From the NCBI GenBank assembly GCA_964635325.1, contig CAZWOL010000049.1:1-22018 (forward strand): 22,018 nt of DNA. The letters run 5' to 3'. Shown here in pieces: positions 3,182-21,530 of this stretch; the first letter of the stretch is position 1, and the number at the start of each line of letters is the position of its first letter. This DNA is from an uncultured Pseudobdellovibrionaceae bacterium. GTDB taxonomy: Bacteria; Bdellovibrionota_B; Oligoflexia; Oligoflexales; Bog-1112. A program made the position numbers and the translations under genes. A model generated the notes under the pieces. It was not told the DNA's origin. It searched no databases and saw only the letters and a list, made by a program, of their open reading frames with translations.

Positions 3182-3745
3182 TCAGTAAGAAGAGTGATAG
3201 TATCCTTGCGCCGTTCTGGCAACACCTACAGAGCATCCCGTGGTCAATGCAAGTCCAACAGCAATCCACAAGCCTGCATAGATCTGTTGGGCAACATCTT
3301 TTGATTGCAGAGCTGTCGCGCACGATAGCACCGTAACGACGGCACCGATTGCGACCCCCACAGAGAAGCCAGCGATAGCTCCCTTGTCTACAGGATTATC
3401 AGCATTTTGCTTAGCCTCATTTTTTAAGCTACTCGATTGCGTTAGAGAGTTATTAGATGCTGCTTGCGGCACCACAGTTGTGCTCGTCCCACCTTGGTCG
3501 CCACTGCGATTTCTGCCTTCGCGAGTGCGATTGAGTCGGTCCCGTAGACGATTTCTACCGCTGACTGTAATGTTGGCATCCACATGCGTTTCATTTACAT
3601 CAACTACAGTTGCATTAGCAACTTCATCAACAAAAGTACTGTTGTCGAATACCAATTCATTTGTGAGATTTTGTGCAAGCAGGCTGTGAGGTGCAAGCAA
3701 AGCGAGAACACTAAGAGCAGACACAATGGATGTACGCAACTTCAT
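3182..3745 (-). CDS. secreted/membrane glycine-zipper (Gly-zipper_2TM, SlyB/Pcp-like) protein with an N/S/T- and Arg-rich low-complexity N-region
   Basis: A signal peptide (MKLRTSIVSALSVLALLAPHSLLAQ) is followed by a hydrophilic region with many N-x-S/T triplets. Next comes the Arg-rich stretch RNRLRDRLNRTREGRNR. The C-terminus has two hydrophobic Gly-zipper helices: GAIAGFSVGVAIGAVVTVL and GLWIAVGLALTTGCSVGVA. Confidence 0.6.
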   Translation of the reverse strand: MKLRTSIVSALSVLALLAPHSLLAQNLTNELVFDNSTFVDEVANATVVDVNETHVDANITVSGRNRLRDRLNRTREGRNRSGDQGGTSTTVVPQAASNNSLTQSSSLKNEAKQNADNPVDKGAIAGFSVGVAIGAVVTVLSCATALQSKDVAQQIYAGLWIAVGLALTTGCSVGVARTAQGYYHSSY

Positions 3746-3993: not shown

Positions 3994-4332
3994 ATGAACA
4001 ATAAAATGGGAATGGACGTCTTTGTTGCGTTCCAAGTTATTCCAAGGTCCAGGAACGCTAATAATTTCGAGATTGTGGATAAAGCCATCGAAGTAGTCAA
4101 GAACTCAGGAGTTCCTTACCAAGTTAGCGCAATGGAAACGACGATGATGGGGGATCTCGATCACCTCCTTGCTATTGTCAAGGAAGCCCAGCAACGCTGT
4201 ATCGAGTGCGGGGCTGTCGAGGTGATCACAAACATAAAAATTCATAACAGAACTTCAGAAGCTACAGATAGCTTCTGCACCTACGATCGAGGAGTGACTG
4301 CTAGCAACAGCGTTTTTTTAAAATCGAACTGA
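3994..4332 (+). CDS. UPF0045 (MTH1187/YkoF-like, thiamine/HMP-binding fold) protein
   Basis: The motif VIPRS...VVKNSGVPYQVSAMETTMMGDLDHLLAIVKEA...VEVITNIKI matches the YqgV/MTH1187 family pattern (IPLG...SGLKYQVTPMGT..EGDLDE...VTTIKID). The true start is more likely ATG 4006 or 4012, with an AAGGAAGAG Shine-Dalgarno at 3983-3991. The 3' end overlaps the hflX 3' end convergently. Confidence 0.7.
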   Translation: MNNKMGMDVFVAFQVIPRSRNANNFEIVDKAIEVVKNSGVPYQVSAMETTMMGDLDHLLAIVKEAQQRCIECGAVEVITNIKIHNRTSEATDSFCTYDRGVTASNSVFLKSN

Positions 4333-5676
4333 TTTGAAGCTATCGACCATTGAGGAAAGAGCTCGAATGCGCATGTGCACACCATCTTCTGCAAAATCTT
4401 CGCTCAAAACTTTAGCATTGCGATGGACTTCGGCACGCAGATCATTGCGATCGTAGGCGATCACGATCTCTGCTTCGATCATATCTTTCTCAAAGTGTGC
4501 GATGAGTACATTGCGTAATTTTGCAACATCTTCTTTTGAACGCGCAGACATTGCAACAGCATCAGGAAACTCGTCTTGCAATGCATTGCGTGTAGGCTCG
4601 TCCACACAGTCGATCTTATTCAAAATAAGCAGGCTTGGGGTTGCATCCAGATCGAGCTTGAGCTCCGTCAAAACCCGACGAGTTGTCTCGAGTTGCGAAC
4701 GAAAGGTCGGATCCGCAGCATCGACAACGAAAATAAGCAAAGAAGCATCTGCAGCCTCATCCAAGGTCGAACGAAAGGATGCAACCAAGTCGTGAGGGAG
4801 CTTCTTGATAAATCCGACTGTATCTGATACCAATATACGAGGTAGCGTTTCGGGTTGCATAGCACGTATTGTTGTATCGAGAGTTGCAAAGAGTTTATCT
4901 TCGACAAGAACGTCACTCCCGGTAAGAGCTCGCATCAACGAAGACTTGCCTGCATTCGTGTACCCAACCAAGGCAACCTTAGCTTGGTCCCTGCGACGCT
5001 GTCTGCGTCCTTGTTGGTTTTTATGAATATCTTCGAGCTCATCTTTTAATTCTGCAATGCGATCGCGTATGCGGCGCTTGTCAAGTTCGTGAGCTGTTTC
5101 CCCAATCCCTTTCGCACCGATCCCTCCACCCTGACGATCTTGTCCGACACGATTCATCCGCAAGCGTGGGCTCAAATAGCGTAGTCGAGCGATATCAACC
5201 TGAATGCGGGCCTCACGTGTACGAGCATGTCGGTGAAAAATCTCGATGATCACCCCAGTGCGATCCATGACTTGAGCACCGGTTGCCATCTCAAGATTGC
5301 GCAACTGTGTTGGACTTAGCTCATCATCAAATACGACGGTATCTGCTTTTGGCTCAGCATCTTCATCATCAGACTCTTCAACTTCAGGGGCAGCTTCAAC
5401 AACTTTGTTCTTGCGACGTGGGGCCTGTGCCATAGACTCGATTTTGCCACTGCCTCCGGTGCGTCTACATAGCTCCTGTAGCTTGCCCTCACCAAGAATT
5501 GTTGAATTCTCGGCAATCGAACGTTTCTGCGACAAAGTCCCCACCACCTCAAAGCCAAGGGTAGTGACCAGGCGCCCTAATTCGCTGAGAGAGGCATTGT
5601 GATCCTCCAAGCTAACATTCGGTAATTGCAGGCCAACTAAGATGGTTTTCGGGGGGGTTGTTTGATTATGATGCAA
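4318..5676 (-). CDS. hflX: GTPase HflX
   Basis: An HflX N-domain is present, and DELSPTQLRNLE...VMDRTGVIIEIF matches the HflX linker region. The G1 motif is GYTNAGKSSL, G3 is DTVGF and G4 is NKID. A Lys/Arg-rich coiled segment (RRQRRRDQAKV) precedes G1. The protein carries an acidic insertion (see findings). Confidence 0.9.
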   Translation of the reverse strand: MHHNQTTPPKTILVGLQLPNVSLEDHNASLSELGRLVTTLGFEVVGTLSQKRSIAENSTILGEGKLQELCRRTGGSGKIESMAQAPRRKNKVVEAAPEVEESDDEDAEPKADTVVFDDELSPTQLRNLEMATGAQVMDRTGVIIEIFHRHARTREARIQVDIARLRYLSPRLRMNRVGQDRQGGGIGAKGIGETAHELDKRRIRDRIAELKDELEDIHKNQQGRRQRRRDQAKVALVGYTNAGKSSLMRALTGSDVLVEDKLFATLDTTIRAMQPETLPRILVSDTVGFIKKLPHDLVASFRSTLDEAADASLLIFVVDAADPTFRSQLETTRRVLTELKLDLDATPSLLILNKIDCVDEPTRNALQDEFPDAVAMSARSKEDVAKLRNVLIAHFEKDMIEAEIVIAYDRNDLRAEVHRNAKVLSEDFAEDGVHMRIRALSSMVDSFKSVRF

Positions 5677-5782: not shown

Positions 5783-8700
5783 ATGAATCAGGATTCACTT
5801 GGAGTCGATCATAAAATGAGACAAATACAAACACTCATTTACGCATCTTTGCTGCTTGTCTGTTCTTCATCCTGCAAAACACCAGCTCCCAAAATAAATA
5901 AGCGCAACAATTTAACTCCAACATCGGCTCCAACGAACGAAAAAAAAGTACCGAATCACGCTGCAAGCGCAGTGCTCTTCAAAGATATGGATAGTAGAGG
6001 GTCTTATGTTGAAGGAACTTTGAAAATCGGCAAAGCTTTTGACGAAAGCGACATAACTCACTACGTTCTTTACTGGGGAAAATCCGCATCAGAAAAAGTT
6101 CCGAACCTAGTCCCGCTTGCTAAAGTTGACAAGACAGGAGCGAATTTAAAAGTTAGCATCGCTAAAGACACCCAAATCCCCAATACAGCAAGCCATCTTA
6201 TTGTTCTCACAGGGAATGAAAATGGCGAAATGGCCAAAGGAGTTAGCACTAAGATTCACGATTTAGGTATCCCGTTAAACGCTGCACTGAGCTTGAATTT
6301 TCACAAAACAGAAGTTACTGAAAGCCATATTCAAGGAACCCTCACGATAGATCGGGCAATGGATGAAAGTGATCTGAATGCCTATGTGATTTACTGGGGT
6401 AAGTCTACAACCCAAAAACTTTCTCCCACACCTTTGGCCACTTTAAAGAAAGGCGAGGCAAAACTCACCTTTGACCTCGATATGAGTCGCCCCAAGGGGG
6501 CCGTCTATTTTTTGGTATTTGCAAAGAATGATGATGGTGAATCAGAGCGGAGTATAAGCACTCCCATTATCACAGACGGGATACCAACAATCGATATAAT
6601 CAATGCAAAATTTCAAGAGAATGATCCCAATCCAAACACAATTGGAGGAACGATCACATTCGACAAACCCTCAGATTCAACTGAAGTTGTCATTTATTGG
6701 CACAACTCTGGAGACAAAAGTCAAAGTGCTTTCGCAGAAACAAAAACTGGTGAATACAACATTCCTCAATCAACCCAGATACCAGAAGGAATGACGCATT
6801 TCTTGCTTGTTAGCAAAAACAAGATGGGTGAGAGCCTTAGCGGACAACTGATACCGATTATCAAAAGACTTGTTCCTAAAGAAGTTGGGACTGCATCGAT
6901 TAGTAAAAACGACTCGACCAATTTTCAATCATTATCTGCGATACTCACTTTGAATACACCCAATAGTTCAACAATTCAGCAATTTCACTTGTATTGGGGA
7001 CAATCGGAAACGCAAAAACTTCAAGACACACCTTTCCAAACCTATCAAGCAGACACTCCATCAATCCAGCATAGCTTTAATGAAACAACTTTAGCAGAAG
7101 ATGCGAGCCATATTTTAATTTACTCTGCAAACGAATTTGGTGAGAGCCAAACACCAGTCGCAGTAGAAATACCATACAATCTTGAATTACGTCCTAAAAG
7201 TATTGCAAAAAAAATTGAATTTAAAGATACGAATTACAAAACCCAGCATATAAGCGGACAACTCAGCATAGAGAGAGCAGACAACGAAAAGGACCTCACT
7301 GACTATGTCGTGTATTGGGCCAAGGGTGAAGCTAAGGGGGGCTTCATCGTAAAAATCCCCAAAGGAAAAACATCAGACCCCTTGCATATTGACTTTGAGA
7401 GTACAAAAATCCCAGACGATTCTACAGGGTTTTTGGTCTACACAAGCTATCACGGACAAGAGTCTATCGACAAAGCAACGCTTGATGGCATTGATGACGC
7501 ACCCAAAATTGCTAGCCTTGAGTTTACAGATGAATACACAGGTCTAATGCGTCTAGGTGGCGAATTGAAAATCACCCCTCCCCAATTGGATCTCAATTCA
7601 AGCAAGCAGGAGATTTTTAAAAACTCTTTCAAGTCCTATGAAATTTATCTCTATGCTCCTCATAAGAATAAAGAAGCAAAAACAGAAAACTGGATCCGTC
7701 TGAGCTCATTGAAAAATAGGGACAATCCTACCATTAGCTTAGATCAAGAACTCCCAAAAGAAGCCATATCAAACAATGAAATAAAGTTTAAGGTGACCAT
7801 TAAAGACAAGGAAGACTTTGAAGGTCCCGCCTTTGAAAGGACGTTTGAAAAAAAGATCCCACACGTTGCATATGCCTGGTTGCAACTTGGACTTAGCAAG
7901 GATAATCCAACTCAAATCACAGATGATGTCCCCGCAGTCGACAACTACGATTTACGCGTCATCTCAACAGACGGCTCTTGTCCCGAAGCCATTATAGGAA
8001 AAAATATAGAAACAATGAAATTGAGAGCGGGAAACAATCTATCCCAAGATTTTAAAGTCACAACTTGCCAGCTTAAAATTTCTAATCCCAATGAGAAAAT
8101 AAAGATATTGGTTGGTGATCAGACACTCACAGCTCAGCCTTTTTCATCACTCACATCTCTACAAATTGTCGGAGATACTGGATGTGGGCCCGAATGCCTG
8201 TCCAGGAACGAATTCATTGTTGTTTCTACACGAATGCGTAATCAGAACAATCAGCTTGTCATTCACCAAGGAAACTATGTCTACCAAGAAACGTCTGATA
8301 GCTGGGCAAACTGGGAAGAAGAGTTTTTTAAGCCTGCAAAAGATCTTCTCTCAGAAGCTCCTTGGGTCTTTGTACGTGGCAATCGTGAGGACTGCAAAGG
8401 AGCTTATCATGGATTCATACGTTTTCTAGATGTATGGGACTACACAGCACAAAGTCAAAAATGCAAAGAAGTTTCTCATCCCTTCAAATTTGAAAGGACT
8501 GGTGGTACATTTTACATTGCAGATTCATCTGCAGTGCCATCGCATGAGACTTCAAGTGCAGAACAAAAGCAGGGTCTTATTGATGGCCTAAGCAAAACCT
8601 TCAAAGCCATTGATTCAGATGCATCTTCGTCAAATTCAAAATTTTTACTCACAAGCAGCCCGATATGGGCATGCGAACCACAACTTGTCAGCCCCTCAGA

Positions 8701-9139
8701 AATCTGGAACAATGGTGGCTTGCGAAACTGCATAGAGCAAGGGCAGTTCCTTCGGAAGGAATTAGGAAAATTTTTTGACACAAGCAAAAATAATTTACGA
8801 AAAAAAATCTTAGCGGTCATCTCAGGCCGCCTTCACTTTTTTTCAATAGCATCGTTTCAAGATAATGAAGCAATGCAGTGGGTGATCGGCAATGGAGGCA
8901 GCAACCCACTCATCGGATGGTGGAACACGCTTGGCATGCAAATCCCCAACCTGATAACTTACAATCTAGCCATCACATCCGGTGATCGAATAGTTAAGAA
9001 GAGCTATTTTTATAACAATGACTGGGGATTTAGCCTCCTAGAGGCTGATCATGAAAACTGGACTCTCAGCAACTTCGATACTTCAGGAGCTAAAGCAGGA
9101 TACTACCAAGTTAATAGTCAGGACCGCAGCTACAAGTAG
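5783..9139 (+). CDS. giant secreted (lipo)protein: six FN3/PAP-N-like repeats + YAWLQL domain + degenerate purple-acid-phosphatase-like metallophosphoesterase domain (paralog 1)
   Basis: The signal peptide MRQIQTLIYASLLLVCSSSC suggests the true start may be ATG 5816. Six ~100-aa repeats each carry YV(L/I)YWGKS and (F/H)L(I/V)x..N..GES motifs. After them come YAWLQLGLS...C...C, then the phosphoesterase motifs IVGDTG, VIHQGNYVY, FVRGNRED, ISGRLHFF and VIGNGG. Confidence 0.85.
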   Translation: MNQDSLGVDHKMRQIQTLIYASLLLVCSSSCKTPAPKINKRNNLTPTSAPTNEKKVPNHAASAVLFKDMDSRGSYVEGTLKIGKAFDESDITHYVLYWGKSASEKVPNLVPLAKVDKTGANLKVSIAKDTQIPNTASHLIVLTGNENGEMAKGVSTKIHDLGIPLNAALSLNFHKTEVTESHIQGTLTIDRAMDESDLNAYVIYWGKSTTQKLSPTPLATLKKGEAKLTFDLDMSRPKGAVYFLVFAKNDDGESERSISTPIITDGIPTIDIINAKFQENDPNPNTIGGTITFDKPSDSTEVVIYWHNSGDKSQSAFAETKTGEYNIPQSTQIPEGMTHFLLVSKNKMGESLSGQLIPIIKRLVPKEVGTASISKNDSTNFQSLSAILTLNTPNSSTIQQFHLYWGQSETQKLQDTPFQTYQADTPSIQHSFNETTLAEDASHILIYSANEFGESQTPVAVEIPYNLELRPKSIAKKIEFKDTNYKTQHISGQLSIERADNEKDLTDYVVYWAKGEAKGGFIVKIPKGKTSDPLHIDFESTKIPDDSTGFLVYTSYHGQESIDKATLDGIDDAPKIASLEFTDEYTGLMRLGGELKITPPQLDLNSSKQEIFKNSFKSYEIYLYAPHKNKEAKTENWIRLSSLKNRDNPTISLDQELPKEAISNNEIKFKVTIKDKEDFEGPAFERTFEKKIPHVAYAWLQLGLSKDNPTQITDDVPAVDNYDLRVISTDGSCPEAIIGKNIETMKLRAGNNLSQDFKVTTCQLKISNPNEKIKILVGDQTLTAQPFSSLTSLQIVGDTGCGPECLSRNEFIVVSTRMRNQNNQLVIHQGNYVYQETSDSWANWEEEFFKPAKDLLSEAPWVFVRGNREDCKGAYHGFIRFLDVWDYTAQSQKCKEVSHPFKFERTGGTFYIADSSAVPSHETSSAEQKQGLIDGLSKTFKAIDSDASSSNSKFLLTSSPIWACEPQLVSPSEIWNNGGLRNCIEQGQFLRKELGKFFDTSKNNLRKKILAVISGRLHFFSIASFQDNEAMQWVIGNGGSNPLIGWWNTLGMQIPNLITYNLAITSGDRIVKKSYFYNNDWGFSLLEADHENWTLSNFDTSGAKAGYYQVNSQDRSYK
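5969..7852 (+). repeat. six tandem ~100-aa protein-level repeats (FN3 / purple-acid-phosphatase N-domain-like) inside paralog 1
   Basis: The repeats begin GTLKIGKAFDESDITHYVLYWGKS, GTLTIDRAMDESDLNAYVIYWGKS, TEVVIYWHNSGDKS, QQFHLYWGQSETQK, GQLSIERADNEKDLTDYVVYWAKG and SYEIYLYAP. They end SHLIVLTGNENGE, VYFLVFAKNDDGES, THFLLVSKNKMGES, SHILIYSANEFGES and GFLVYTSYHGQES respectively. They are diverged at the DNA level. Confidence 0.75.
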
Positions 9140-9345
9140 CCTTTACGATCTCATTGATTACGGCAAAAACAACCTCGTTTCAATAGATGCTACAACCTTT
9201 AGTAAGCATGCGGCATCTCAAACAAGCCTACCTAAGCATAATCGTAGAGTTCTGCATAATCTTCAAAAGATTGACAACTCTAAAACTATTTTTCAAAAAT
9301 CCAAAAATTTTTCATAACCAGGCAAGTTATCCTCTCCATTCAGAA

Positions 9346-9375
9346 TTGTAAGATTTCCATGTTACGCAATATAAT
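9346..9375 (+). promoter_or_regulatory. candidate sigma70-type promoter for paralog 2 (TTGTAA -18- TATAAT)
   Basis: TTGTAA lies at 9346-9351, followed by an 18-bp spacer and a perfect TATAAT at 9370-9375. This sits ~30 nt upstream of the GGGGGAG Shine-Dalgarno, inside the 265-bp AT-rich spacer between the paralogs. Confidence 0.35.
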
Positions 9376-9404
9376 TTTACAAAAGCCAAAAGCTCAGAGG
9401 GGGA

Positions 9405-12400
9405 GTGCCAGTGAAAAATCGTCTCTACGTCTTGTCCATTTGTGCATTTATGATGTGGGATCTAACATCCTGCGCAAATAAGAACACTGGAGGTCGCGCT
9501 CAATCCGCAGACAACCCCATACCGAGTGAGGAAACTACCCCAGCAAAGCAACCTGACAAAGGTCAAACTCATAAAACTACAGACGCTCCCACTAACGAAG
9601 TAAGCACGTCAACGACCAATGCCACGCCTCCCGAAAGTGGAAAACCAGATGAAGCTACTAATAGGAGCGAACAAAAAGAAGCTAGAGAAAACAGCGCCCC
9701 TGGAACTGGAGGGGATGCTAACGAACCTGAGCTCCCCTTACTCCCTCGAGCAGAAAAAATTGAAGCAGCGACTAAACTCACAACGAACAATGAACTAACA
9801 GGCTCCGTGTGGGTTGAACCTTCTGATCATCCAGAAAGCACTCATGACTATGTCCTATATCTCGGATCAAGTCCTTCTAGCCCCTTTGATGAAAGTAAAC
9901 TATTACTTGTTCGTACACTTCAAGAACTCAAAAATGATCAAGAATCGATTCAATTGCCCCACAAGATTTTAAGCGAACAGGATCAATATCTCCTTGTTGC
10001 ACCTCGCAGCACCGACAAAAAGCTTGGAGCACAGATCAGCATAGCACTATTTCCAATTTCCTATGCTTGGCTTCAACTTTCTACGACAGAAGGTGAATAT
10101 TCCGCTCGAGCCATCACGGAACACGACAGCTGCCCCACAGCTATCATCGATGGCAATGCACAGGATATGAAACTACGTGATAAAGATGAAAAATTTCATT
10201 TCAAAGTTTGTGAACTTAGCATTAAGGATACAGCAAAAAGCTTAATCATCGCTGACAAAGAACTGAAAATCAAACCCCGAAAAAGCATCGAAAGAATGCA
10301 TCTCATCGGCAATACCAACAATGATCAAAATGGATTCTACAGTCCACAATTCCCCAACGTTGCAAATAAGATTACGACAGATAACCCAGAACTCATCGTT
10401 CATCTAGGTGACATGGTCGAAGGAGCCAGCGACTACAATCAATGGGTGAAGCAATTTTTTGAGCCCGCAAAAGAGCTCATGAGTATGGCCCCCTTCGTTT
10501 TTGTACGTGGAGAAAAAGACAAATGCATTGCAGATAGATTCTTTGGCACAACAGACAATAAAAGCGAATGCGAATCTGTATTACCTATCTATAGTTTTAA
10601 AGTAAGAAAAGGAAAGTTCTTTGTACTCGATTCCACGGACAAAGAGCCTGAGAATAGAATGCGCTTAGAAAATGATTTCGCATTCAAATCTATACGAAAT
10701 GGAGCACAACCCAATAATTTTATACTGACTCACATGACAGCATGGGGTTGTATGCCGATTTCGTTAGGAAATCAATGCGAAGACGATGGATACTACTTTC
10801 GGGAAAAATTCTTAAATAAATTCAACCCAGACAGTTTAAACAAGTTTCAAGCAATCATATCAGCTCATATTCCACTATTTGCAATGAACTCGTATGCTAA
10901 GCATCCAATGCAGATTATTGTTGGAAACGGAGGACAGTCGATCCTAAGATACAATGGTCCCATCTCCTATGGAGAGGATCCAAAATTCCGAGAATCAAAA
11001 CCCGATCAACCTACCAACCATACAAGTGACTCTAAGTATGGCTACAGCGTCTTGGAGCCAATTAAAGATGCGTGGCAGCTGACAAGTGTCCATGCAAAAG
11101 ACAATACCAAGGCATATTTTAAGCTAGCCGATGGAAAATTCGAATCTCTTGCAAGACCCCGACCTGAGGATCAAGCGTTGAATGCTGCCAATCAATTGAA
11201 ATCGATTGAGGGATGGGTAACATTTCAAGAAGCTAACGACAAAAATATCGATAGCTATATTTTTTATATTGGAACATCACCAAAAAGCAAATGGCAAGAG
11301 GATAAGGAGATCACCAGGATCTCTACAGACTTGATCGCATCTTTTCGTAAAAATCTAGAACCAAACCAAGCCATAGATTTTTCAGAAATTGTCTATTTTC
11401 CAAGCCTTTCGCAGCTTAGAAATGACCCCAAAAATGAGCAAGATCAATACCTCCTTGTTATCCCATATAATGCTAAAGGTGAGACTGGACCTCCTATTAG
11501 CACACCACTATTTTTTCATAACTATGCCTGGCTCCAACTATCCACCGACTTAACTCAATATGATCTACGAGCCGTCAGTACCGATGTAGGATGTCCTCTA
11601 GTCCAGATCGATGGCAAAACAGAAACTATGGCTGTTCGCGCTAGAAAAGACAAAGACTTTGAGGTTACAGTCTGCAACCTAAAGATTGCAGATACCGTTA
11701 CAGACGTGAAAGTAGCTAACCAAGAATTCAAACTAAGAAAGCGAAAAGATATCAAAAAAATGCATCTAGTTGGGGATACTGGTTTCAATAATTCTTGGTC
11801 CAGCAAGGCAGGTTTTTTTAGCTGGGAAACAGCTGGACTTTATAAAGATTGGCTCTCTGGTGCAAAGCCAATGTTTCCTGCTGTAGCCAACAAAATAGCA
11901 GAGGATAGCCCAGAACTCATCATTCACATGGGTGACTATCTCTATAGCCATACAAAGACATTTGCTCAGTGGAGACAAGAATTCTTCGAACCTGCGAGTG
12001 AGATGTTGAGTAAAGCTCCTCTCGTCTTTGTCCGAGGAAACAAAGAATCCTGCGAAGAACATGGAGATGCCTACAGACGTCTCTTCGATGTTGAGCCATA
12101 TGACAAGGACAGTGCATGTAAGAAGGTCATACCGGCCTATACTATCGAGGTGGCAGGAGGAAAGTTCCTCATCTTAGACTCGTCAGATGCTCAATCCATC
12201 GAGAAGAGCTACAAACAAAAAGGTGATAATTTTTACAATCTCACCGAAACATCTTTAATTCATGATCTGAAAGATTTCGCACAGCATCTTACAGATCCAG
12301 CAACTAACTCCTTTATCATCACACACCGAGATGTCTGGGGCTGCGCACCAAAATCTACTACCACATGCTCACCTGGTGGTTACCTGATGCGAGAGAAGGT

Positions 12401-12788
12401 CCTTAATCAAGATGGGATGGAAAAATTACAGAACATACAAGCGGTCCTATCCGGTCATCTACATCTCTTTGCAATATCATCATTCAAAGATCATGCAATG
12501 CAGATCATCATTGGAAACGGTGGGACTGTGCTCAACACTCCGTACAAGATCGGTGAAGAATATGGCCCCATTTCAAATGATCCAAGTAATGTACAAAAAC
12601 ATGCAGAAGACTATAAGCATGGCTACGCTACTTTAGAACGAAATCAAAATGGCGGATGGACTCTTATCAGTAAATTTACCAAAGGTAGTGATAGAACTTT
12701 TGTCTTGAAGAATAGAAGTATTGAAACTCTACAATGGAATCTACACGAAAGAGAAGAAGACAAAGAGAATTCTGGACAGGAAGAATAA
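9405..12788 (+). CDS. giant secreted lipoprotein with two tandem FN3-like + YAWLQL + purple-acid-phosphatase-like modules (paralog 2)
   Basis: A lipoprotein signal (VLSICAFMMWDLTS-C) is followed by a ~100-aa T/P/E/K-rich disordered linker. Module A is DYVLYLGSSP...YAWLQLSTTEG...HLIGNTNN...IVHLGDMVEG...FVRGEKDKC...ISAHIPLF. Module B is SYIFYIGTSP...YAWLQLSTDLT...HLVGDTG...IIHMGDYLY...FVRGNKESC...ITHRD...LSGHLHLF...IIGNGG. The start is GTG 9405 or, more likely, GTG 9411, with a GGGGGAG Shine-Dalgarno at 9398-9404. Confidence 0.85.
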   Translation: MPVKNRLYVLSICAFMMWDLTSCANKNTGGRAQSADNPIPSEETTPAKQPDKGQTHKTTDAPTNEVSTSTTNATPPESGKPDEATNRSEQKEARENSAPGTGGDANEPELPLLPRAEKIEAATKLTTNNELTGSVWVEPSDHPESTHDYVLYLGSSPSSPFDESKLLLVRTLQELKNDQESIQLPHKILSEQDQYLLVAPRSTDKKLGAQISIALFPISYAWLQLSTTEGEYSARAITEHDSCPTAIIDGNAQDMKLRDKDEKFHFKVCELSIKDTAKSLIIADKELKIKPRKSIERMHLIGNTNNDQNGFYSPQFPNVANKITTDNPELIVHLGDMVEGASDYNQWVKQFFEPAKELMSMAPFVFVRGEKDKCIADRFFGTTDNKSECESVLPIYSFKVRKGKFFVLDSTDKEPENRMRLENDFAFKSIRNGAQPNNFILTHMTAWGCMPISLGNQCEDDGYYFREKFLNKFNPDSLNKFQAIISAHIPLFAMNSYAKHPMQIIVGNGGQSILRYNGPISYGEDPKFRESKPDQPTNHTSDSKYGYSVLEPIKDAWQLTSVHAKDNTKAYFKLADGKFESLARPRPEDQALNAANQLKSIEGWVTFQEANDKNIDSYIFYIGTSPKSKWQEDKEITRISTDLIASFRKNLEPNQAIDFSEIVYFPSLSQLRNDPKNEQDQYLLVIPYNAKGETGPPISTPLFFHNYAWLQLSTDLTQYDLRAVSTDVGCPLVQIDGKTETMAVRARKDKDFEVTVCNLKIADTVTDVKVANQEFKLRKRKDIKKMHLVGDTGFNNSWSSKAGFFSWETAGLYKDWLSGAKPMFPAVANKIAEDSPELIIHMGDYLYSHTKTFAQWRQEFFEPASEMLSKAPLVFVRGNKESCEEHGDAYRRLFDVEPYDKDSACKKVIPAYTIEVAGGKFLILDSSDAQSIEKSYKQKGDNFYNLTETSLIHDLKDFAQHLTDPATNSFIITHRDVWGCAPKSTTTCSPGGYLMREKVLNQDGMEKLQNIQAVLSGHLHLFAISSFKDHAMQIIIGNGGTVLNTPYKIGEEYGPISNDPSNVQKHAEDYKHGYATLERNQNGGWTLISKFTKGSDRTFVLKNRSIETLQWNLHEREEDKENSGQEE

Positions 12789-12892
12789 CGGAAGCGAACC
12801 CCCCTGGCATTTCCGCAATTTTCTAAATTTTCCACTCCCATTCCAGCAACTTATACATAAAGCCTAAAACCCTACCTCACTTTGCCGAAAAC

Positions 12893-12917
12893 TCCTGCAC
12901 CACAGATTTGTGCAGGA
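12893..12917 (+). promoter_or_regulatory. 8-bp-stem inverted repeat TCCTGCAC-N9-GTGCAGGA overlapping the Shine-Dalgarno of the hybrid kinase gene
   Basis: The stems at 12893-12900 and 12910-12917 are perfect with a 9-nt loop. The 3' arm contains the GCAGGA Shine-Dalgarno 7 nt before ATG 12925. Confidence 0.3.
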
Positions 12918-15900
12918 TTCATCAATGGCTCATGATGCAAAAGAAAAAGAACGTCTAGAGGAACTGGCAAGTTTTCACATATTAGGAACTGGACCAGAAC
13001 CTTTGTTCGACGACATTACTTTTTTAGCAGCACGCATTTTCCATGTACCAATAGCTGCCGTAAGTATCCTAGATGAGCATCGCAATTGGTACAAATCCAA
13101 GGTTGGCATCGAACAGGATGAAGTTCCACGCAAAGATGCGTTCTGCAATGTGACTATTGCTGATATGGACCTACTCGTTATCGAGGATACGTTGGAAGAC
13201 GAACGTTTCAAAAACAATCCCTTCCAAATACGTTTTTATGCTGGAGCTCCACTGATCACTTCAAATGGGCTTGCATTAGGGACTCTGTGCATACTTGATC
13301 GCAATCCAAGAAAATTTGCAGCTGAAGACCGCGAACTACTGCTTACACTTGCACGACAGGTGATGAGTCACTTGGAGGCACGCAAGCTTCACCAGATATT
13401 CGAAGAAAAAGAAGAACAAAACAAGCTGATGCGCTACTGCTTGGATGCTGCAATGGTCGGTTTTTGGGAGTGGGACCTTACGACACAGTCGCTTGCTTGG
13501 GACCATAATATGTATCGCCTTTACGGTGTCAAAGAAGGCAAATATACCAACAACTCTGAGGCTTGGGATCAGATTCTCTATGAGAATGATCGCAACAAAG
13601 CTTATGCTGATATTAAGAAATCTTTAGATGGCACAGGTGAATTTCAATCACATTTTCGTGTCAAAACTGATAACACGGGTTTGAAGACCATTGCAGCGAA
13701 AGGAAAGGTACTCTTTTCGAATGAAGGCAAACCCATCCGAATGGTTGGCATCAACTGGGACATTTCTGCAGAGACTGAAAAAGCAGAATTCTTCCGAGGT
13801 ACTTTTGAAAACTCATCACTGCCTATAGCTGTTTTTGATCCCCAAGGCTTATTCTCACGCGTGAACAAAGCATTTGCAAATTTACTAGGGTATACTATCG
13901 ACTTCTTTCCAGGAAAAAAACTCACGACTTTCTTAGATTCTCATGACTTTGTCAAAATTCAGCTCAAAATGGAAGAAGCGGTTCAAATGAAAAGCTCACG
14001 TATCATGAGCTTTGAAAGCCAATGCAGACATATCACTGGTCGCCTAGTACCTGTACTTATACGTACACAACTATTTTTAACTCATGACAAAAGCCCTGCA
14101 TATTTCCTATTGTTTGTCACAGATTTGACGGAGCAGAAAAAAGCAAATGACGAGCTTATCGAAAAGAATAAGGCAATACTTGCGGAACGTAATCGCTTTG
14201 AAAACCTTGTTTTTGCAATCAACCAATCCGCTATTGTTGCACATACAGACACAGAAGGTAACCTAACCTCAGTAAATGCAAAATTCTGTGAAGTTAGCGG
14301 CTATGCTGAGCATGAATTATTGGGACAAAATTTTCGGATGCTAAGCTCAGGTACGCAGTCTGATAGATACTTTCTGAAAGCCTGGAAGGTCCTCAACTCT
14401 GGTGTTGCATGGAATGGAGAGGTCAGTTACTGCAAAAAGAATAAAGAGATCTTTTGGGTTGAAAGCACAATTGTTCCACTCATGAACTCTGATGGAAAAA
14501 TTGATCACTACATTGTCATCAGCTTCGAAATCACCAAACGTAAGCAGCTGGATGATCACCTTCGTGAAAGTCGCGAGCTTGCAAAAAAAGCAAGTCGAGC
14601 AAAGTCGGACTTTCTTTCCAATATGAGTCACGAGATTCGCACGCCACTCAACGGTATCATCGGCATGACAGATCTGCTCGTTGGAACCGAACTCGCAGCT
14701 CCTCAGCGCAAATACGCCAATGCTATTTTAGATTCAGGGAAAGTTTTGCTGCATCTGATCAATGACATTCTTGAATTTTCTAAGATTGAGTCCGGAAAAA
14801 TCGAGTTAGAGATTGGTGAAACAGATTTGGGCCACCTACTCCGTGGTCTTGTTATGCCACACCAATTTCAATGCACATCGAAAAACATCGGCTTTGATTT
14901 TCAGCCCGTCGAATTAGAACAAATGATTTTTGCTGATGGCGGGCGCCTAGGTCAGATCTTGAATAATCTTTTGAGCAACTCTGTCAAATTTACCTCCAAA
15001 GGTAAGGTCTCTCTCAAAGTCGAAATTATGAATCAGACATCTGAAAATATAACCTTGCTCTTCAAAGTTGAGGATACAGGTATTGGCATTGATGCCAAGT
15101 ATCAGAAGCATCTTTTCAAAGCTTTTACTCAGGGTGAGAGTATTTTTCAAAAATACGGTGGTACAGGACTTGGGTTATCCATCGTTAAAAAGCTTATTGA
15201 CTTGATGGGTGGCAAGCTCTCCTTCGAAAGCAAAAGCGGCGAAGGAAGTTCCTTTCAAATCGAAATTACATTCAAAAAATCAGCTACCCTTGTACGAGCA
15301 CACTCTATCGAAAATGAATTCAAGAAAGTTCCTCTCAAAAAATTAAAGGGACGAGTGCTAATTGCAGAAGATAATATTCTCAATCAAAGCATTGTCTATG
15401 AAATGCTTGTGGACCTAGGGTGCCAGGTAGCTGTTGCAGACAATGGACGAGAAGTCTTGCGTCAACTACAAAAAGATAGCTTCGACCTTATCCTTATGGA
15501 CTGTCGCATGCCAGAAATGGATGGCTATGAGTGTACGAAAGCGATTCGTAGCCATGATTCGGAAGCCATCGCAAAACTGAGAATCATTGCACTTACAGCT
15601 AATGCCTCTGCCGAAGACCGAGACCGCTGCCTTGCTGTTGGAATGAACAGCTTCATATCCAAACCGATCACAAAAGCTAAACTTTTTGCGACCCTCACAA
15701 CCTACTTGGGAGACGCTGATGCCCCCGTGGAGCATGAGAAAGCACCTGATGCTCTCAGCGGCAAAGTCGATCACAGCATTATTAATGACCTACTAGCAAT
15801 GGGCCGACGCAAACCCTCGTTTTTCCCACGTCAGCGGGAGCTCTTCACAACTCATGCGAAAGCAAAGCTAGAAACTCTGGCAGCGGAGATAAAAAATGTA

Positions 15901-16122
15901 AACCGTAAGGAAATACGGGAAATTGCACACTATTTGAAGGGATCAAGCGCTGGTCTTGGCTCACTCGAAATGGCAAGGCTTTGCAAAGAACTTGAACTCA
16001 GTGTAGAACGTTTGAGCGAAGAAGAACTTGAGAAATATCGCGCAGATATTAATCGAGAGTTTGATGTCTTTGTAAAGTACTTAAATACAATCATCGTAAA
16101 ACAAGAGGGCGAGACACCGTGA
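12910..16122 (+). CDS. cytoplasmic unorthodox hybrid sensor histidine kinase (GAF-PAS-PAS-PAS-HisKA-HATPase_c-REC-Hpt)
   Basis: An N-terminal GAF domain is present (FLAARIFHVPIAAVSILD...GTLCILDRNPRKF), followed by PAS-like blocks (FWEWDLTTQSLAWD; GNLTSVNAKFCEVSGY...WNGEV). The H-box SNMSHEIRTPLNG has its His codon at 14629-14631. The N-box is LGQILNNLLSNSVKFT, G1 is VEDTGIGI and G2 is GGTGLGLSIVKKL. The REC domain is VLIAEDN...DLILMDCRMPEMDG, with its Asp codon at 15499-15501. The Hpt motif is IAHYLKGSSAGLG, with its His codon at 15928-15930. There is no TM segment. The true start is likely ATG 12925 (MAHDAKEKER); the listed 12910 start is a GTG. Confidence 0.9.
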   Translation: MQDSSMAHDAKEKERLEELASFHILGTGPEPLFDDITFLAARIFHVPIAAVSILDEHRNWYKSKVGIEQDEVPRKDAFCNVTIADMDLLVIEDTLEDERFKNNPFQIRFYAGAPLITSNGLALGTLCILDRNPRKFAAEDRELLLTLARQVMSHLEARKLHQIFEEKEEQNKLMRYCLDAAMVGFWEWDLTTQSLAWDHNMYRLYGVKEGKYTNNSEAWDQILYENDRNKAYADIKKSLDGTGEFQSHFRVKTDNTGLKTIAAKGKVLFSNEGKPIRMVGINWDISAETEKAEFFRGTFENSSLPIAVFDPQGLFSRVNKAFANLLGYTIDFFPGKKLTTFLDSHDFVKIQLKMEEAVQMKSSRIMSFESQCRHITGRLVPVLIRTQLFLTHDKSPAYFLLFVTDLTEQKKANDELIEKNKAILAERNRFENLVFAINQSAIVAHTDTEGNLTSVNAKFCEVSGYAEHELLGQNFRMLSSGTQSDRYFLKAWKVLNSGVAWNGEVSYCKKNKEIFWVESTIVPLMNSDGKIDHYIVISFEITKRKQLDDHLRESRELAKKASRAKSDFLSNMSHEIRTPLNGIIGMTDLLVGTELAAPQRKYANAILDSGKVLLHLINDILEFSKIESGKIELEIGETDLGHLLRGLVMPHQFQCTSKNIGFDFQPVELEQMIFADGGRLGQILNNLLSNSVKFTSKGKVSLKVEIMNQTSENITLLFKVEDTGIGIDAKYQKHLFKAFTQGESIFQKYGGTGLGLSIVKKLIDLMGGKLSFESKSGEGSSFQIEITFKKSATLVRAHSIENEFKKVPLKKLKGRVLIAEDNILNQSIVYEMLVDLGCQVAVADNGREVLRQLQKDSFDLILMDCRMPEMDGYECTKAIRSHDSEAIAKLRIIALTANASAEDRDRCLAVGMNSFISKPITKAKLFATLTTYLGDADAPVEHEKAPDALSGKVDHSIINDLLAMGRRKPSFFPRQRELFTTHAKAKLETLAAEIKNVNRKEIREIAHYLKGSSAGLGSLEMARLCKELELSVERLSEEELEKYRADINREFDVFVKYLNTIIVKQEGETP

Positions 16123-19318: not shown

Positions 19319-20452
19319 GTGAAGACTCTAACCATAAAAAGATCACAACTTACTTACCCCGGATCCTATCGTGATTTGCGAGTCGATACATACAGCTCCC
19401 AATCATCTATAAAACGTGCTGTTGTGATGACGACAGCATTTATTGAAAATGGGTACTGGTATCAGATCGAAAAGAAAGGATACTCGCTCGCTAAAAGAAT
19501 AGCGCAAGAAGGATTTGATGTCTACGTCTTGAGTTTTGTACTCAAAGAGAAATGGCCGGCGCACAAAATTCCCCAAGATGCTTCTTTTAGCGAAATGGTC
19601 TGCGAACATTTACCCAATCTACATCGACAGCTTGCTGCGCAGTACCAAGACATTCACTATATTGGACATAGTTTTGGTGTCACTGTTCTACTGGCATATT
19701 TGATGGGCTACCGCAAAAATCCTAAGGGTGAGTGGATGCCAGATGCCAAAGATGCTGAGCAAAATGCGAACAAAGTCCGTTCTTTTGTAAGCCTTGCGGG
19801 TCTTTTCCAACTGCAGTGGCCTAAGCGCAGTTTGTTTCCAGATCCAACGGCATTCAAAACGTGGATCTATCCGCTTCTAAGTTATACAGCAGCGCAGCTA
19901 CCTTCATTAGCGAAAATCCCCTGGGAGCAACGCCTCCCCACGAGCAAGCTCTCTGCAACACGGCATTGGCCAGTATCTGCAGTAACACTAGGCATGCTGA
20001 AATGCCTCGAAGCGATTGGACTTATGCCTAGCTTTCATTTTGCAAATGCGGATATGGAAGCTCTGCGTCTTGCAATGAGTGAAGGCTCAAGCGATGAGAG
20101 CATGGAGCTCTTTCGAACTGTACTTGGACTGCACCCAAATGCTCGTCCTCTCGTTTCGAATACAGCGAAGCGAGGTCGAGCGCCATCGAATAAAAAAGCT
20201 GCACATGCAGCACTCCATAATTTTTGCGAGGATCTTAGGCACATTCACACCCCCATTTTATTTATACAGGGCGAGTTAGATCAGATCACACATCCACAGA
20301 CCATACAACGATATGGTTTTGATCGCGTTCAGTCTGTTGACAAAACGTTTACAATTCTAAAAAACACTGGACACCAAGATATGCTGGCAGCTAAAAATCC
20401 CGAGAAACTCTTTGTTGAACTTAAGAATTGGCTAAACCGTGAGTTCTCCTAA
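19319..20452 (+). CDS. alpha/beta-hydrolase fold esterase/lipase-like protein
   Basis: The nucleophile elbow is IGHSFG. An acid residue sits in GELDQI and a His in NTGHQDM, with a ~150-aa lid insertion between the Ser and Asp. The start is GTG 19319, with an AGGAGGA Shine-Dalgarno 7 nt upstream. ATG 19427 is an alternative start. Confidence 0.75.
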   Translation: MKTLTIKRSQLTYPGSYRDLRVDTYSSQSSIKRAVVMTTAFIENGYWYQIEKKGYSLAKRIAQEGFDVYVLSFVLKEKWPAHKIPQDASFSEMVCEHLPNLHRQLAAQYQDIHYIGHSFGVTVLLAYLMGYRKNPKGEWMPDAKDAEQNANKVRSFVSLAGLFQLQWPKRSLFPDPTAFKTWIYPLLSYTAAQLPSLAKIPWEQRLPTSKLSATRHWPVSAVTLGMLKCLEAIGLMPSFHFANADMEALRLAMSEGSSDESMELFRTVLGLHPNARPLVSNTAKRGRAPSNKKAAHAALHNFCEDLRHIHTPILFIQGELDQITHPQTIQRYGFDRVQSVDKTFTILKNTGHQDMLAAKNPEKLFVELKNWLNREFS

Positions 20453-21530
20453 ATTGACGACTGAAAAAACCATAGGTGTTCTTCTCATTAATACAGGTAC
20501 GCCTTCGCATCCGACCTACCTTGGTGTGCGACGCTACCTTCAGCAATTTCTGAGCGATCGACGGGTTCTAAACATGTCTCCCCTCGCTCGTTTTCTTTTG
20601 TTGCAACTCGTGATCTTACCTCTACGTTCAGCACGCTCGGCACACGCGTATAGACAGATTTGGACAAAAGAAGGCTCTCCATTACGCACCCATCATTTTC
20701 GTCTTGGTGAGGGCTTGCAAGCGGCACTGGGCCCTCGCTACAAAGTCGTATGTGGGATGCGTTATGGTGAGCCATCACTAGAAAGCGTTTGGGAGCAGCT
20801 CAAAGATGTCTCCGAGTGTGTGCTCTTTCCACTTTTTCCACAGTATGCAGCATCCTCAACAGCAAGCGCACTAGCCGAAGCGATGCGAGTGATGGGCCTG
20901 CATTGGAATGTTCCGACTGTTCGTACTATTGCCCCATTTTTTGCAGACCATGGTTTTATAGATGCTTTTGTTCAGCAGGTTCATGCAAGAGCTCGTGAAG
21001 TTATGGGCACTCCTAAGCATGCTGAAACAATGCAACAAGATACAGGCACATCCATAAAACCATGGGAGCACCTTGTGATGAGCTTTCATGGTTTGCCAGA
21101 AGACCATGTGGAACAAAGCGGATGCAAACGCTCATGCCTGCAAAATACTTGCACCACAACAAACACATCCTGCTACCGTGCTCAGGCTTTCCAAACCGCA
21201 CGTCTGCTTGCGCAAGCCCTAGGCCTGTCGAATGATGAATATTCGGTTGGCTTTCAGTCTCGTCTAGGTTCAAAACCGTGGATCAAACCCTACTTTGACC
21301 ACGTGCTTCCTGAGCTAAGGAAGAAGGGTTTTAGACGCATTGGTGTCGTGTGCCCCTCGTTCGTTGCAGACTGCTTAGAAACACTGGAAGAGATTCAAAT
21401 TCGGGCTCGAACATCATGGAAAGAGTTGGGGGGAGAGGAACTGATTTTTGTACCGTGTCTGAATGCAAGTGATGTGTGGGTCCAAGCAGCAGCACGGTTG
21501 GTGAGAGACGCAGGGCTAGGGCAGACCTAG
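20439..21530 (+). CDS. hemH: ferrochelatase with internal Cys-rich insertion
   Basis: The N-terminus reads IGVLLINTGTPSHPT...YLQQFLSDRRV. The motifs SFHGLPE, IGVVCPSFVADCLETLEE and IFVPCLN are classic ferrochelatase blocks. The start is ambiguous: GTG 20439, overlapping the upstream gene by 14 nt, or TTG 20454. Confidence 0.9.
   Translation: MSSPKLTTEKTIGVLLINTGTPSHPTYLGVRRYLQQFLSDRRVLNMSPLARFLLLQLVILPLRSARSAHAYRQIWTKEGSPLRTHHFRLGEGLQAALGPRYKVVCGMRYGEPSLESVWEQLKDVSECVLFPLFPQYAASSTASALAEAMRVMGLHWNVPTVRTIAPFFADHGFIDAFVQQVHARAREVMGTPKHAETMQQDTGTSIKPWEHLVMSFHGLPEDHVEQSGCKRSCLQNTCTTTNTSCYRAQAFQTARLLAQALGLSNDEYSVGFQSRLGSKPWIKPYFDHVLPELRKKGFRRIGVVCPSFVADCLETLEEIQIRARTSWKELGGEELIFVPCLNASDVWVQAAARLVRDAGLGQT

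Follow-up and report, generated by a model that had tools for sequence, protein, structure and literature searches.

Two adjacent genes of an uncultured Pseudobdellovibrionaceae bacterium, here g1 and g2, encode very long proteins that share a module resembling the purple acid phosphatases (PAPs). The question raised by this locus is whether such proteins act as phosphoesterases, as binding proteins, or as both. The DNA analyzed, hereafter the window, is the whole stretch of 22,018 nucleotides of contig CAZWOL010000049.1 (assembly GCA_964635325.1). In our reading, to which we assign a probability of roughly 55%, g1 and g2 encode anchored exported proteins that display three heads, of which one is probably a phosphoesterase and the other two are non-catalytic.

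The two same-strand open reading frames reported in the preliminary description of this DNA (1118 and 1127 aa) are present and uninterrupted (Table 1). Nevertheless, the true starts are likely ATG 5816 for g1 and GTG 9411 for g2. The former is preceded by GGAG and the Logan assembly also calls g1 as a protein of 1107 aa, while the latter is preceded by GAGGGGGAG and agrees with P0001, a database protein of 1125 aa that is listed under the sources ncbi and lgn. Residues are counted from position 5783 in g1 and from position 9405 in g2. One explanation for the locus would be an artefact, that is, a collapsed or chimeric assembly, or else the decay of functionless paralogs. The presence of the locus in only one sample, its damaged catalytic motifs and a G+C content of 0.40-0.43, below the 0.46-0.48 of the left flank, would fit this explanation, which is largely refuted already and which we regard as extremely improbable. 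The Logan assembly of SRR12712853, obtained independently, matches this DNA along 19,710 bp with 100% identity. Moreover, near-identical DNA repeats are absent, and the best repeat spans only 54 nt at 72%, which bears out the argument from DNA divergence made at the outset. An identical independent assembly together with strongly diverged DNA therefore rules out a misassembly or a collapsed repeat. Decay is also at odds with two unbroken reading frames of more than 1100 codons, ribosome-binding sites upstream of both genes, a promoter-like site before g2, invariant cysteines and core motifs, and normal substitution rates.

Table 1. Features of the g1-g2 locus (positions in the window).
Feature	Position	Strand	Details
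g1	5816..9139	+	1107 aa from likely start ATG 5816
g1 longest ORF	5783..9139	+	1118 aa
g1 signal peptide	5816..5875	+	MRQIQTLIYASLLLVCSSSC; hydrophobic core; Cys-containing end outside canonical lipobox
g1 five tandem FN3-like repeats	5960..7510	+	aa 60-166, 167-270, 271-367, 368-466, 474-576
g1 segment aa 577-695	7511..7867	+	occupies the place of the module-adjacent FN3-like domain of g2; fold unverified
g1 N-terminal beta domain of module	7871..8143	+	opens with YAWLQL; conserved Cys at aa 733 and 762
g1 PAP-like metallophosphoesterase domain	8144..9136	+	degenerate site GDTG / GNYVY / GNRE / TSSP / GRLH; 4/7 metal ligands
Promoter-like site	9346..9375	+	TTGTAA, 18 nt spacer, TATAAT; consensus match only; in the 265-bp gap upstream of g2
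g2	9411..12788	+	1125 aa from likely start GTG 9411
g2 longest ORF	9405..12788	+	1127 aa
g2 signal peptide	9411..9473	+	canonical lipobox LTSC; lipidation predicted at Cys23; Ala at +2
g2 low-complexity stalk	9474..9740	+	aa 24-112; rich in T, P, A, E
g2 FN3-like domain A	9747..10061	+	aa 115-219
g2 module 1 (YAWLQL beta and PAP-like domain)	10062..11159	+	degenerate GNTN / GDMVE / GEKD / THMT / AHIP; 3/7 ligands
g2 FN3-like domain B	11166..11522	+	aa 588-706
g2 module 2 (YAWLQL beta and PAP-like domain)	11523..12740	+	GDTG / GDYLY / GNKE / THRD / GHLH; 7/7 ligands

As regards the surroundings of the locus, no E. coli-type Pho box occurs in the window within 3 mismatches of the E. coli consensus, and Rfam and tRNA scans of the window returned nothing. 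The window also encodes HflX, whose similarity to entries named as Oligoflexales and Oligoflexus (57-64% identity) suggests an Oligoflexia-like organism, and no g1- or g2-like gene lies near hflX in the contigs bearing its closest counterparts (76% and 70% identity). A JGI contig (L006) considered as deriving from a related organism was discarded as unsupported, given that its DUF4143 protein has no blastp match to the partial DUF4143 ORF of the window.

We found three paralogous modules of about 400 aa, one in g1 and two in g2. The hexapeptide YAWLQL that had first drawn attention to them is found in all three copies (aa 697 of g1; aa 220 and 707 of g2), and so is the pair of cysteines of the domain that it opens, whose two positions are conserved in 143/150 and 148/150 aligned family sequences. 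The assignment of metallophosphoesterase domains is equally sound, as Pfam Metallophos (PF00149) exceeds its gathering score of 21.5 bits in both proteins (27.8 bits in g1; 69.4 bits, over two stretches, in g2). The two modules of g2 share 35% identity over 511 columns (E 6e-92), and g1 is 26-31% identical to them (E 4e-35 and 1e-45). In the tree, the g2 modules are sisters with 99.5% bootstrap, in agreement with the proposal that the family expanded both within and between genes. Taken together, the three do not form a group of their own (2%) but fall into a clade with P0003 and P0004 (72%). Six cysteines are invariant across the modules, and faster evolution of the degenerate modules is not supported by relative-rate tests, mostly non-significant (chi-square below 3.84 in 6/7). 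Invariant cysteines and normal substitution rates suggest that the module fold is still constrained.

Neither g1 nor g2 has a direct sequence match in the PDB, where PAPs are reached only through the family profile. At the level of structure, the closest solved fold is that of a PAP and spans both the catalytic and the N-terminal beta domain. Plant-type PAPs, such as kidney-bean PAP (PDB 6ofd/1kbp) and the wheat PAP phytase (6git), are among the closest known systems. Plant PAPs align over 333 residues, and pig PAP, which is devoid of an N-domain, over 255. The preliminary description had assigned the role of the PAP N-domain to an FN3-like repeat; judging from these aligned lengths, it is the YAWLQL domain that is the modelled counterpart. 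The FN3-like part of the same structure model is of low confidence and largely unstructured. The profile suggested at that time to check for an N-domain, Pur_ac_phosph_N (PF16656), has no match in full-length g1 or g2 or in 53 family members. Likewise, eight isolated N-domains matched neither Pur_ac_phosph_N nor PhoD_N, even at E<=10, nor any other Pfam model.

The preliminary description had also left room for the YAWLQL domain being confined to one clade. Instead, this domain heads a widespread single-module family of secreted bacterial PAP-like proteins. A profile search retrieved 1276 cluster representatives at E<=1e-3, including 184 at E<=1e-30, with a best match at E 8e-83. Nearly all of these proteins are 380-500 aa long and match only the part of the profile that covers the YAWLQL and metallophosphoesterase domains. 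The N-domain motif of the family is Y-x-W-x-Q-x-G and PF00149 matches 52/53 aligned members. As a whole, the family comprises more than 1000 clusters at 50% identity from Proteobacteria, Legionellaceae, Chloroflexota and Planctomycetota. The exact hexapeptide YAWLQL is also found on an unrelated JGI contig. Source databases name family members only 'metallophosphoesterase', 'serine/threonine protein phosphatase', 'predicted phosphodiesterase' or 'hypothetical'. No NCBIfam model matches the family, generic Pfam Metallophos being the only curated model that does, and a limited literature search found no studied member. Examples include the 'metallophosphoesterase' of Methylosinus trichosporium and of Massilia/Pseudoduganella dura, and the Legionellaceae hypothetical protein CAM4454080.1. 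These proteins are true homologs of the g1 and g2 modules, with the same two-Cys N-domain, phosphoesterase domain and Cys pattern, and lipobox-like signals in the closest relatives. Unlike g1 and g2, they have a single module, no FN3-like domain and, in 87% of cases, a canonical signature.

In contrast to the modules themselves, the architecture of g1 and g2 seems to be rare. None of the best 150 of the 1276 family matches exceeds 697 aa. When 5.8 billion proteins were searched by word index, g2 returned itself alone, and a genome scan that covered 185,579 species, run with the alignment of the three modules, gave two distant loci only, missing the source genome itself. A metagenome scan yielded three loci, all single-module. 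The initial impression that a multi-module PAP, or one on an FN3 stalk, is unfamiliar thus withstands these searches, which returned no counterpart. Among known systems with a comparable layout, YfkN of Bacillus subtilis has two active modules and is anchored by an LPXTG sortase signal, not by a lipobox. UshA-CpdB fusions, of which YfkN is an example, are large secreted or surface-anchored proteins with two fused metallophosphoesterase-type modules (PMC10454023). Unlike g1 and g2, YfkN belongs to the 5'-nucleotidase/CpdB branch, with 5_nucleotid_C domains, and not to the PAP branch, and it has no FN3-like stalk. We regard the g1-g2 architecture as an unusual and new way of arranging an enzyme family that is widespread yet unstudied, and not as a new kind of system.

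The damaged catalytic signature of the modules, overlooked in the preliminary description, is key to deciding between a phosphoesterase and a binding protein. The nine-position PAP signature D-D-Y-N-H-E-H-H-H, which contains the seven invariant metal ligands (D, D, Y, N, H, H, H), is kept in 128/147 homologs (87%), and such exact conservation reflects a strong constraint in those proteins that presumably depend on activity. All three modules deviate from this signature, and the residues flanking the motifs align unambiguously. The signature reads DDYNKEHHH in g2 module 2, NDEEKDHHP in g2 module 1 and DNYNRESRH in g1; hence, the histidine of the GNH motif is replaced in every one. In g2 module 2 this change, to Lys, is the only one, and all seven ligands are retained, including the Tyr of GDxxY. 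On the other hand, the five motif blocks D / GD / GNH(D/E) / H / GHxH, the source of the dimetal ligands, have become N / GD / GEKD / H / AHIP in g2 module 1 and D / GN / GNRE / S / GRLH in g1. In our reading, g2 module 2 has most likely remained able to cleave a phosphate ester or anhydride, and the g1 module and g2 module 1 are most likely non-catalytic binding or scaffolding modules, as far as the residues at these positions can tell. Because the substitutes Asn, Glu, Ser and Arg include possible metal ligands, the loss of function in the degenerate sites is something that we infer. The three modules might instead all be active with remodelled metal centres, for instance with Ca2+ or Mg2+, making g1 and g2 multi-headed phosphatases or phosphodiesterases of differing specificity for phosphate scavenging. 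This is rather unlikely, since a histidine changed to Pro, Arg or Ser at a ligand position cannot coordinate metal in the usual geometry, the GNH histidine is missing from all three modules, and the signature is exact in such a large share of the homologs. PhoD relies on a Cys metal ligand that is not seen in the g1 and g2 modules, whose family keeps the PAP ligand set, and all PhoD Pfam models score under their gathering thresholds. The Fe and two Ca of PhoD (PDB 2yeq; PMC4223295) show that this fold can hold such metals, a further reason for caution over loss of function in the degenerate sites.

The opposite alternative is that no module is catalytic, and that both proteins are adhesins, receptors or structural surface proteins in which the PAP fold serves as a ligand-binding head. 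The replacement of the GNH histidine in 3/3 modules points in this direction, because this change could abolish catalysis in g2 module 2 too, leaving no active module. So do the long FN3-like and low-complexity stalks, which are typical of adhesins. Furthermore, P0006, a single-module close relative, has a fully degenerate site (NNAEQENQR), indicating that catalysis loss recurs in the clade of the g1 and g2 modules. A precedent exists in the apicomplexan GAP50 (PDB 3tgh), a PAP-like protein without catalytic residues or detectable activity (PMC2172186). GAP50 differs from g1 and g2 in being eukaryotic, single-module and anchored by a transmembrane helix; it is not specifically related to them and its glideosome role is irrelevant here. 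The seven ligands of g2 module 2 are hard to explain without a metal centre. In addition, LpxH, the UDP-2,3-diacylglucosamine pyrophosphatase and itself a metallophosphoesterase, is an active enzyme. Its GNH histidine is replaced by Arg (PMC3087551), a precedent for the GNK and GNR of the modules, and its GN-R-D motif is compatible with catalysis. For these reasons we consider it unlikely, albeit less so than three active modules, that all heads are dead.

Regarding the stalks, the repeats fold as a beta sandwich of seven strands, for which FN3 domains are the closest solved structures. The FN3-like label given earlier is therefore apt at the fold level, but it finds no support in Pfam, as no fn3-type profile matches g1 or g2 above threshold. 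The fn3_4 model gives a sub-threshold match (E 0.021; 15.2 bits, the cut-off being 27.1) at aa 612-647 of g1, within an uncertain segment, and a profile of eight FN3-like segments had no significant match in the PDB (best E 0.37). For g1, the preliminary description counted six extra repeats and a further one within the module. This is an overcount, because only five repeats are clear and aa 577-695 bears no significant similarity to those five (3.2 bits, under shuffled controls). In g2, domain A is recovered with a leave-one-out E of 5e-10 and scores 11.9 bits against an HMM of the g1 repeats only (shuffles <=4.8); the corresponding values for domain B are 8e-11 and 18.6 bits (shuffles <=5.7). 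The composition of aa 24-112 of g2 agrees with the disordered T/P/E-rich stalk first proposed.

Both proteins had been described as carrying a lipobox. When signals were checked manually with the rule L-[ASTVI]-[GAS]-C, together with a positively charged n-region and a hydrophobic h-region, this proved right for g2, where MKNRLYVLSICAFMMWDLTSC satisfies the rule despite an unusual Asp at -4. It did not for g1, as neither Cys of LLLVCSSSC fits a canonical lipobox. Close relatives have lipobox-like signals (LVAC in P0005, LSAC in P0007 and an upstream in-frame FLTLSC in P0004), suggesting a lipoprotein ancestry of the modules. Thus, g2 is predicted to be lipid-anchored and g1 may be. We infer lipidation and location for both proteins from these signals, which fit an outer-surface and a periplasmic position equally.

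Altogether, we propose that the three heads, one probably a phosphoesterase and two non-catalytic, arose from a single module of about 420 aa with a signal peptide or lipobox. This ancestor would have combined two domains. The first, an N-terminal beta domain of about 80 residues with two cysteines, would have taken the role that the N-domain has in plant PAPs; the second would have been a phosphoesterase domain with a binuclear metal site and the ligands of PAPs, the Tyr among them. FN3-like spacer domains would then have been added to the module in this lineage, which would also have undergone one ancient duplication that produced a second gene and one duplication inside g2. An N-terminal lipid would hold each protein on the membrane, and the heads would be kept off it by the five FN3-like repeats in g1 and by the T/P/E-rich linker and FN3-like domains in g2. 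The C-terminal module of g2 is predicted to hydrolyse its substrate, with Lys standing in for the GNH histidine as Arg does in LpxH. The degenerate heads, in which fold and disulfide cysteines have been maintained and substitutions accumulate at a normal rate, would bind or scaffold like GAP50.

A more speculative extension, improbable when taken as a whole, joins three parts. The degenerate module of g2 would pack on the active one like the subunits of the plant PAP dimer, forming an enzyme-pseudoenzyme pair. The g1 protein would be a dead 'phosphate-ester lectin' held about 20 nm from the cell on its FN3-like stalk. Both would form a surface system whose target, to be recognized and processed, is a phosphorylated polymer carried by other cells or by particles, candidates being lipid A, teichoic acid, phospholipid and eDNA. 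If true, these would be the first PAP-fold modules serving as bacterial adhesin heads.

The locus opens no long-standing question and implies no new mechanism, and the family would profit from a model that defines its N-domain and from the biochemical study of one member. What the locus offers is a natural experiment in which module duplication was followed by the selective loss of catalytic residues with the fold kept. As such, it is a compact case for studying how a phosphatase becomes a pseudoenzyme or binding module, and how FN3-like spacers are recruited for display.

The products of the tandem genes g1 and g2 (residues numbered from the longest ORFs) are paralogous, and their modules adopt a fold resembling that of purple acid phosphatases (PAPs). 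The hexapeptide YAWLQL, which opens the N-terminal beta domain of the module, occurs three times, at residue 697 of g1 and residues 220 and 707 of g2. The two halves of g2 are 35% identical to each other over 511 columns (E 6e-92), and g1 is 31% and 26% identical to them (E 1e-45 and 4e-35). In the Pfam search, the preliminary description was borne out for Metallophos, which scored over threshold in both proteins, but neither fn3 nor Pur_ac_phosph_N was matched in g1 or g2. An AlphaFold2 model of g2 residues 590-1127, derived from a 55-sequence alignment, had high confidence over the stretch that begins at the YAWLQL strand and ends in the C-terminal beta strands: averaged in blocks of 10 residues, pLDDT exceeded 90 in most of model residues 121-520. 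The FN3-like part of the model was of low confidence and mostly unstructured. All 30 top Foldseek matches of this model were PAPs, with alignments of 470-520 columns for plant PAPs versus approximately 350 for mammalian PAPs. The additional ~80 residues aligned were contributed by plant PAPs, which possess an N-domain. Together with the unstructured FN3-like part, this suggests that the YAWLQL domain, rather than the upstream FN3-like repeat to which the role had been assigned, corresponds structurally to the N-domain of plant PAPs.

Residues 60-576 of g1 comprise five repeats of ~100 residues with an FN3-like fold, which are mutually significant in leave-one-out HMMs (E 1e-12 to 5e-25). Six had been counted before the module, and the segment 577-695 showed no significant similarity to the repeat family in the HMM test. 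Two segments in the equivalent position of g2, each preceding a YAWLQL domain, do belong to this family: an HMM of the g1 repeats only gave 11.9 bits for residues 115-219 and 18.6 for residues 588-706, against at most 5.7 for shuffled controls. Between residues 24 and 112, g2 has a low-complexity linker in which T, P, A and E are abundant. Its lipobox, LTSC, follows the canonical pattern, and the g1 sequence satisfies the lipobox rule at neither Cys; g2 is predicted to be lipidated, anchored and displayed, and g1 may be.

Features of the window
Feature	Position	Strand	Description
187-aa ORF	3182-3745	-	also a gene call in the Logan assembly
HflX	4318-5676		divergent
g1 ORF	5783..9139	+	1118 aa, longest ORF
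Intergenic repeats	9288-9391		11-nt motif and 20-nt direct repeat
g2 ORF	9405..12788	+	1127 aa, longest ORF
Hybrid histidine kinase	12910-16122	+	GAF / PAS x3 / HisKA / HATPase / REC / Hpt; begins 121 bp past g2, same strand
Hydrolase and ferrochelatase	19319-21530		adjacent genes
Partial DUF4143 ORF	21516-22013	-	runs toward the contig end

The locus is genuine. Misassembly, raised as a concern in the preliminary description, is excluded because divergence at the DNA level is great (the longest repeat spans 54 nt with 72% identity, and the modules share just short blastn matches) and because the sequence agrees with the Logan assembly of SRR12712853 at 100% identity across 19,710 bp. The likely start of g1 is the ATG at 5816, which follows the ribosome-binding site GGAG and agrees with the gene as called in the Logan assembly (1107 aa). 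That of g2 is the GTG at 9411, preceded by GAGGGGGAG and matching its 1125-aa database entry. The 265-bp gap between the genes contains a promoter-like site, TTGTAA-18-TATAAT, beside which an 11-nt A/T-rich motif (ATTTTTCAAAA and variants) occurs three times. Like the motif copies, a 20-nt direct repeat flanks this site, and these elements may be an operator or merely A/T-rich sequence.

The flanks are ordinary chromosomal genes, encoding on the left GAPDH, a pentapeptide-repeat protein, a metallo-beta-lactamase-fold protein, thymidine kinase, a thiamine-binding protein and HflX, and on the right the GAF-PAS hybrid kinase, an SRPBCC protein, a DAO oxidoreductase, a Band_7 protein, an alpha/beta hydrolase, ferrochelatase and the DUF4143 fragment. 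The 187-aa ORF had no Pfam match. Judging from one protein, HflX, which shares 57-64% identity with entries carrying the names Oligoflexales or Oligoflexus, the organism is probably Oligoflexia-like. No genes resembling g1 or g2 were found near HflX in relatives whose HflX is 70-76% identical. In one of these, GCA_964611335.1 (70%; L005, 8800-12441), alpha/beta hydrolase, HflX and ferrochelatase follow one another on a single strand. HflX of the window is on the other strand, ~14 kb from the hydrolase-ferrochelatase pair, and g1, g2 and the kinase, SRPBCC, DAO and Band_7 genes intervene; this broken order indicates that the g1-g2 block sits in an apparently rearranged region. G+C is 0.40-0.44 over 6001-16000 (g1, g2 and the kinase) versus 0.46-0.48 in the left flank, and AT skew is strongly positive across both genes (up to 0.23), which could reflect either a K/N/T/E-rich protein composition or foreign origin.

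The catalytic site was read at nine signature positions (motifs GDxG, GDxxY, GNHE, xxxH and GHxH) across 150 aligned sequences. The signature D-D-Y-N-H-E-H-H-H is kept in 128 of 147 homologs, whereas all three window modules carry substitutions, at positions whose flanking residues align unambiguously. Module 2 of g2 (DDYNKEHHH) retains seven of seven metal ligands and changes GNH to GNK; module 1 of g2 (NDEEKDHHP) retains three and the g1 module (DNYNRESRH) four. LpxH is an active pyrophosphatase. Its GNH His is replaced by Arg (PMC3087551), a precedent for a basic residue at the position of the Lys in g2 module 2, which is predicted from its residues to be catalytically active. The other two heads would have a non-catalytic binding or scaffold role, as in the PAP-like GAP50, which lacks catalytic residues, has no detected activity and functions as a membrane anchor (PMC2172186). 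That even g2 module 2, with its altered GNH, is inactive, leaving not one active head, seems unlikely given its full ligand set; that every head is active through remodelled metal sites is rather improbable with only three or four ligands left in two of them. Six Cys are invariant across the window modules, and in relative-rate tests the degenerate copies did not evolve consistently faster (six of seven tests non-significant), which argues that the folds remain under selection. An artefactual or decaying locus is thus scarcely credible. In a single-module close relative, P0006 (Logan, 440 aa), the signature is fully degenerate (NNAEQENQR) and there is a lipobox-like signal; catalytic residues have been lost more than once in this clade.

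In a neighbour-joining tree of the window modules and family relatives, the g2 modules were sisters in 99.5% of 200 bootstraps, and the g1 module did not group with them (2%). The three modules fell with two relatives, P0003 and P0004, in a clade with 72% support. This topology suggests that the intragenic duplication in g2 is lineage-specific and that the split between g1 and g2 is old, or obscured by divergence. P0003, the closest homolog, shares 38% identity with g2 module 2, and its active site is canonical. P0004, the closest complete relative, is a stand-alone, single-module gene with an in-frame lipobox-like signal, VKKLLISSLCFLTLSC, upstream. Adjoining P0004 is a gene that matches Pfam NttE (PF24274; L010, 8914-9756, minus strand), and a Phytase-like (PF13449) gene lies ~6 kb away; Legionella exports Ntt proteins by type II secretion.

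When 1.84 billion cluster representatives were searched exhaustively with a profile, 1276 family matches reached E<=1e-3, of which 184 reached E<=1e-30. The best 150 of these, g1 and g2 aside, are 301-697 aa long, and nearly all cover only profile positions ~100-480, that is, the YAWLQL and phosphoesterase domains. Family N-termini show a signal peptide followed by Y-x-W-x-Q-x-G, so that the YAWLQL domain has counterparts in widespread single-module relatives and is not confined to one clade. The exact hexapeptide recurs in P0003, at the truncated edge of its contig. Source names are generic ('metallophosphoesterase' in Methylosinus trichosporium and Massilia dura, 'hypothetical' in a Legionellaceae MAG), and no NCBIfam model matches the family. 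C-terminal additions differ: P0043 (659 aa) carries DxDxDG-type repeats rich in Asp, which by eye resemble thrombospondin type 3 repeats, together with a hydrophobic segment at its C-terminus, and P0086 (697 aa) carries an unrelated extension of ~280 aa. These may be alternative modes of displaying the module.

The architecture is rare. Among the best 150 of the 1276 matches, g1 and g2 alone exceed 697 aa or carry two modules. A g2 query against 5.8 billion 90%-identity clusters retrieved nothing but g2 itself, and scans of 185,579 species genomes and of JGI metagenome contigs revealed distant or single-module loci only. The sole remaining candidate is the contig that carries P0003 (L006; JGI 3300045502, Ga0494960_00062976, 1-1274), whose end cuts the ORF exactly at 'LYAWLQLGV'; it likewise bears an AAA_14/DUF4143 gene, with no blastp similarity to the window DUF4143 ORF. 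The family profile reaches PAPs in the PDB at 1.7e-8. The enzyme fold itself is already known, and the novelty lies in the architecture. The core idea of the preliminary description stands: g1 and g2 represent a multi-module PAP-like protein family, presumably displayed at the surface, that has expanded by duplication.
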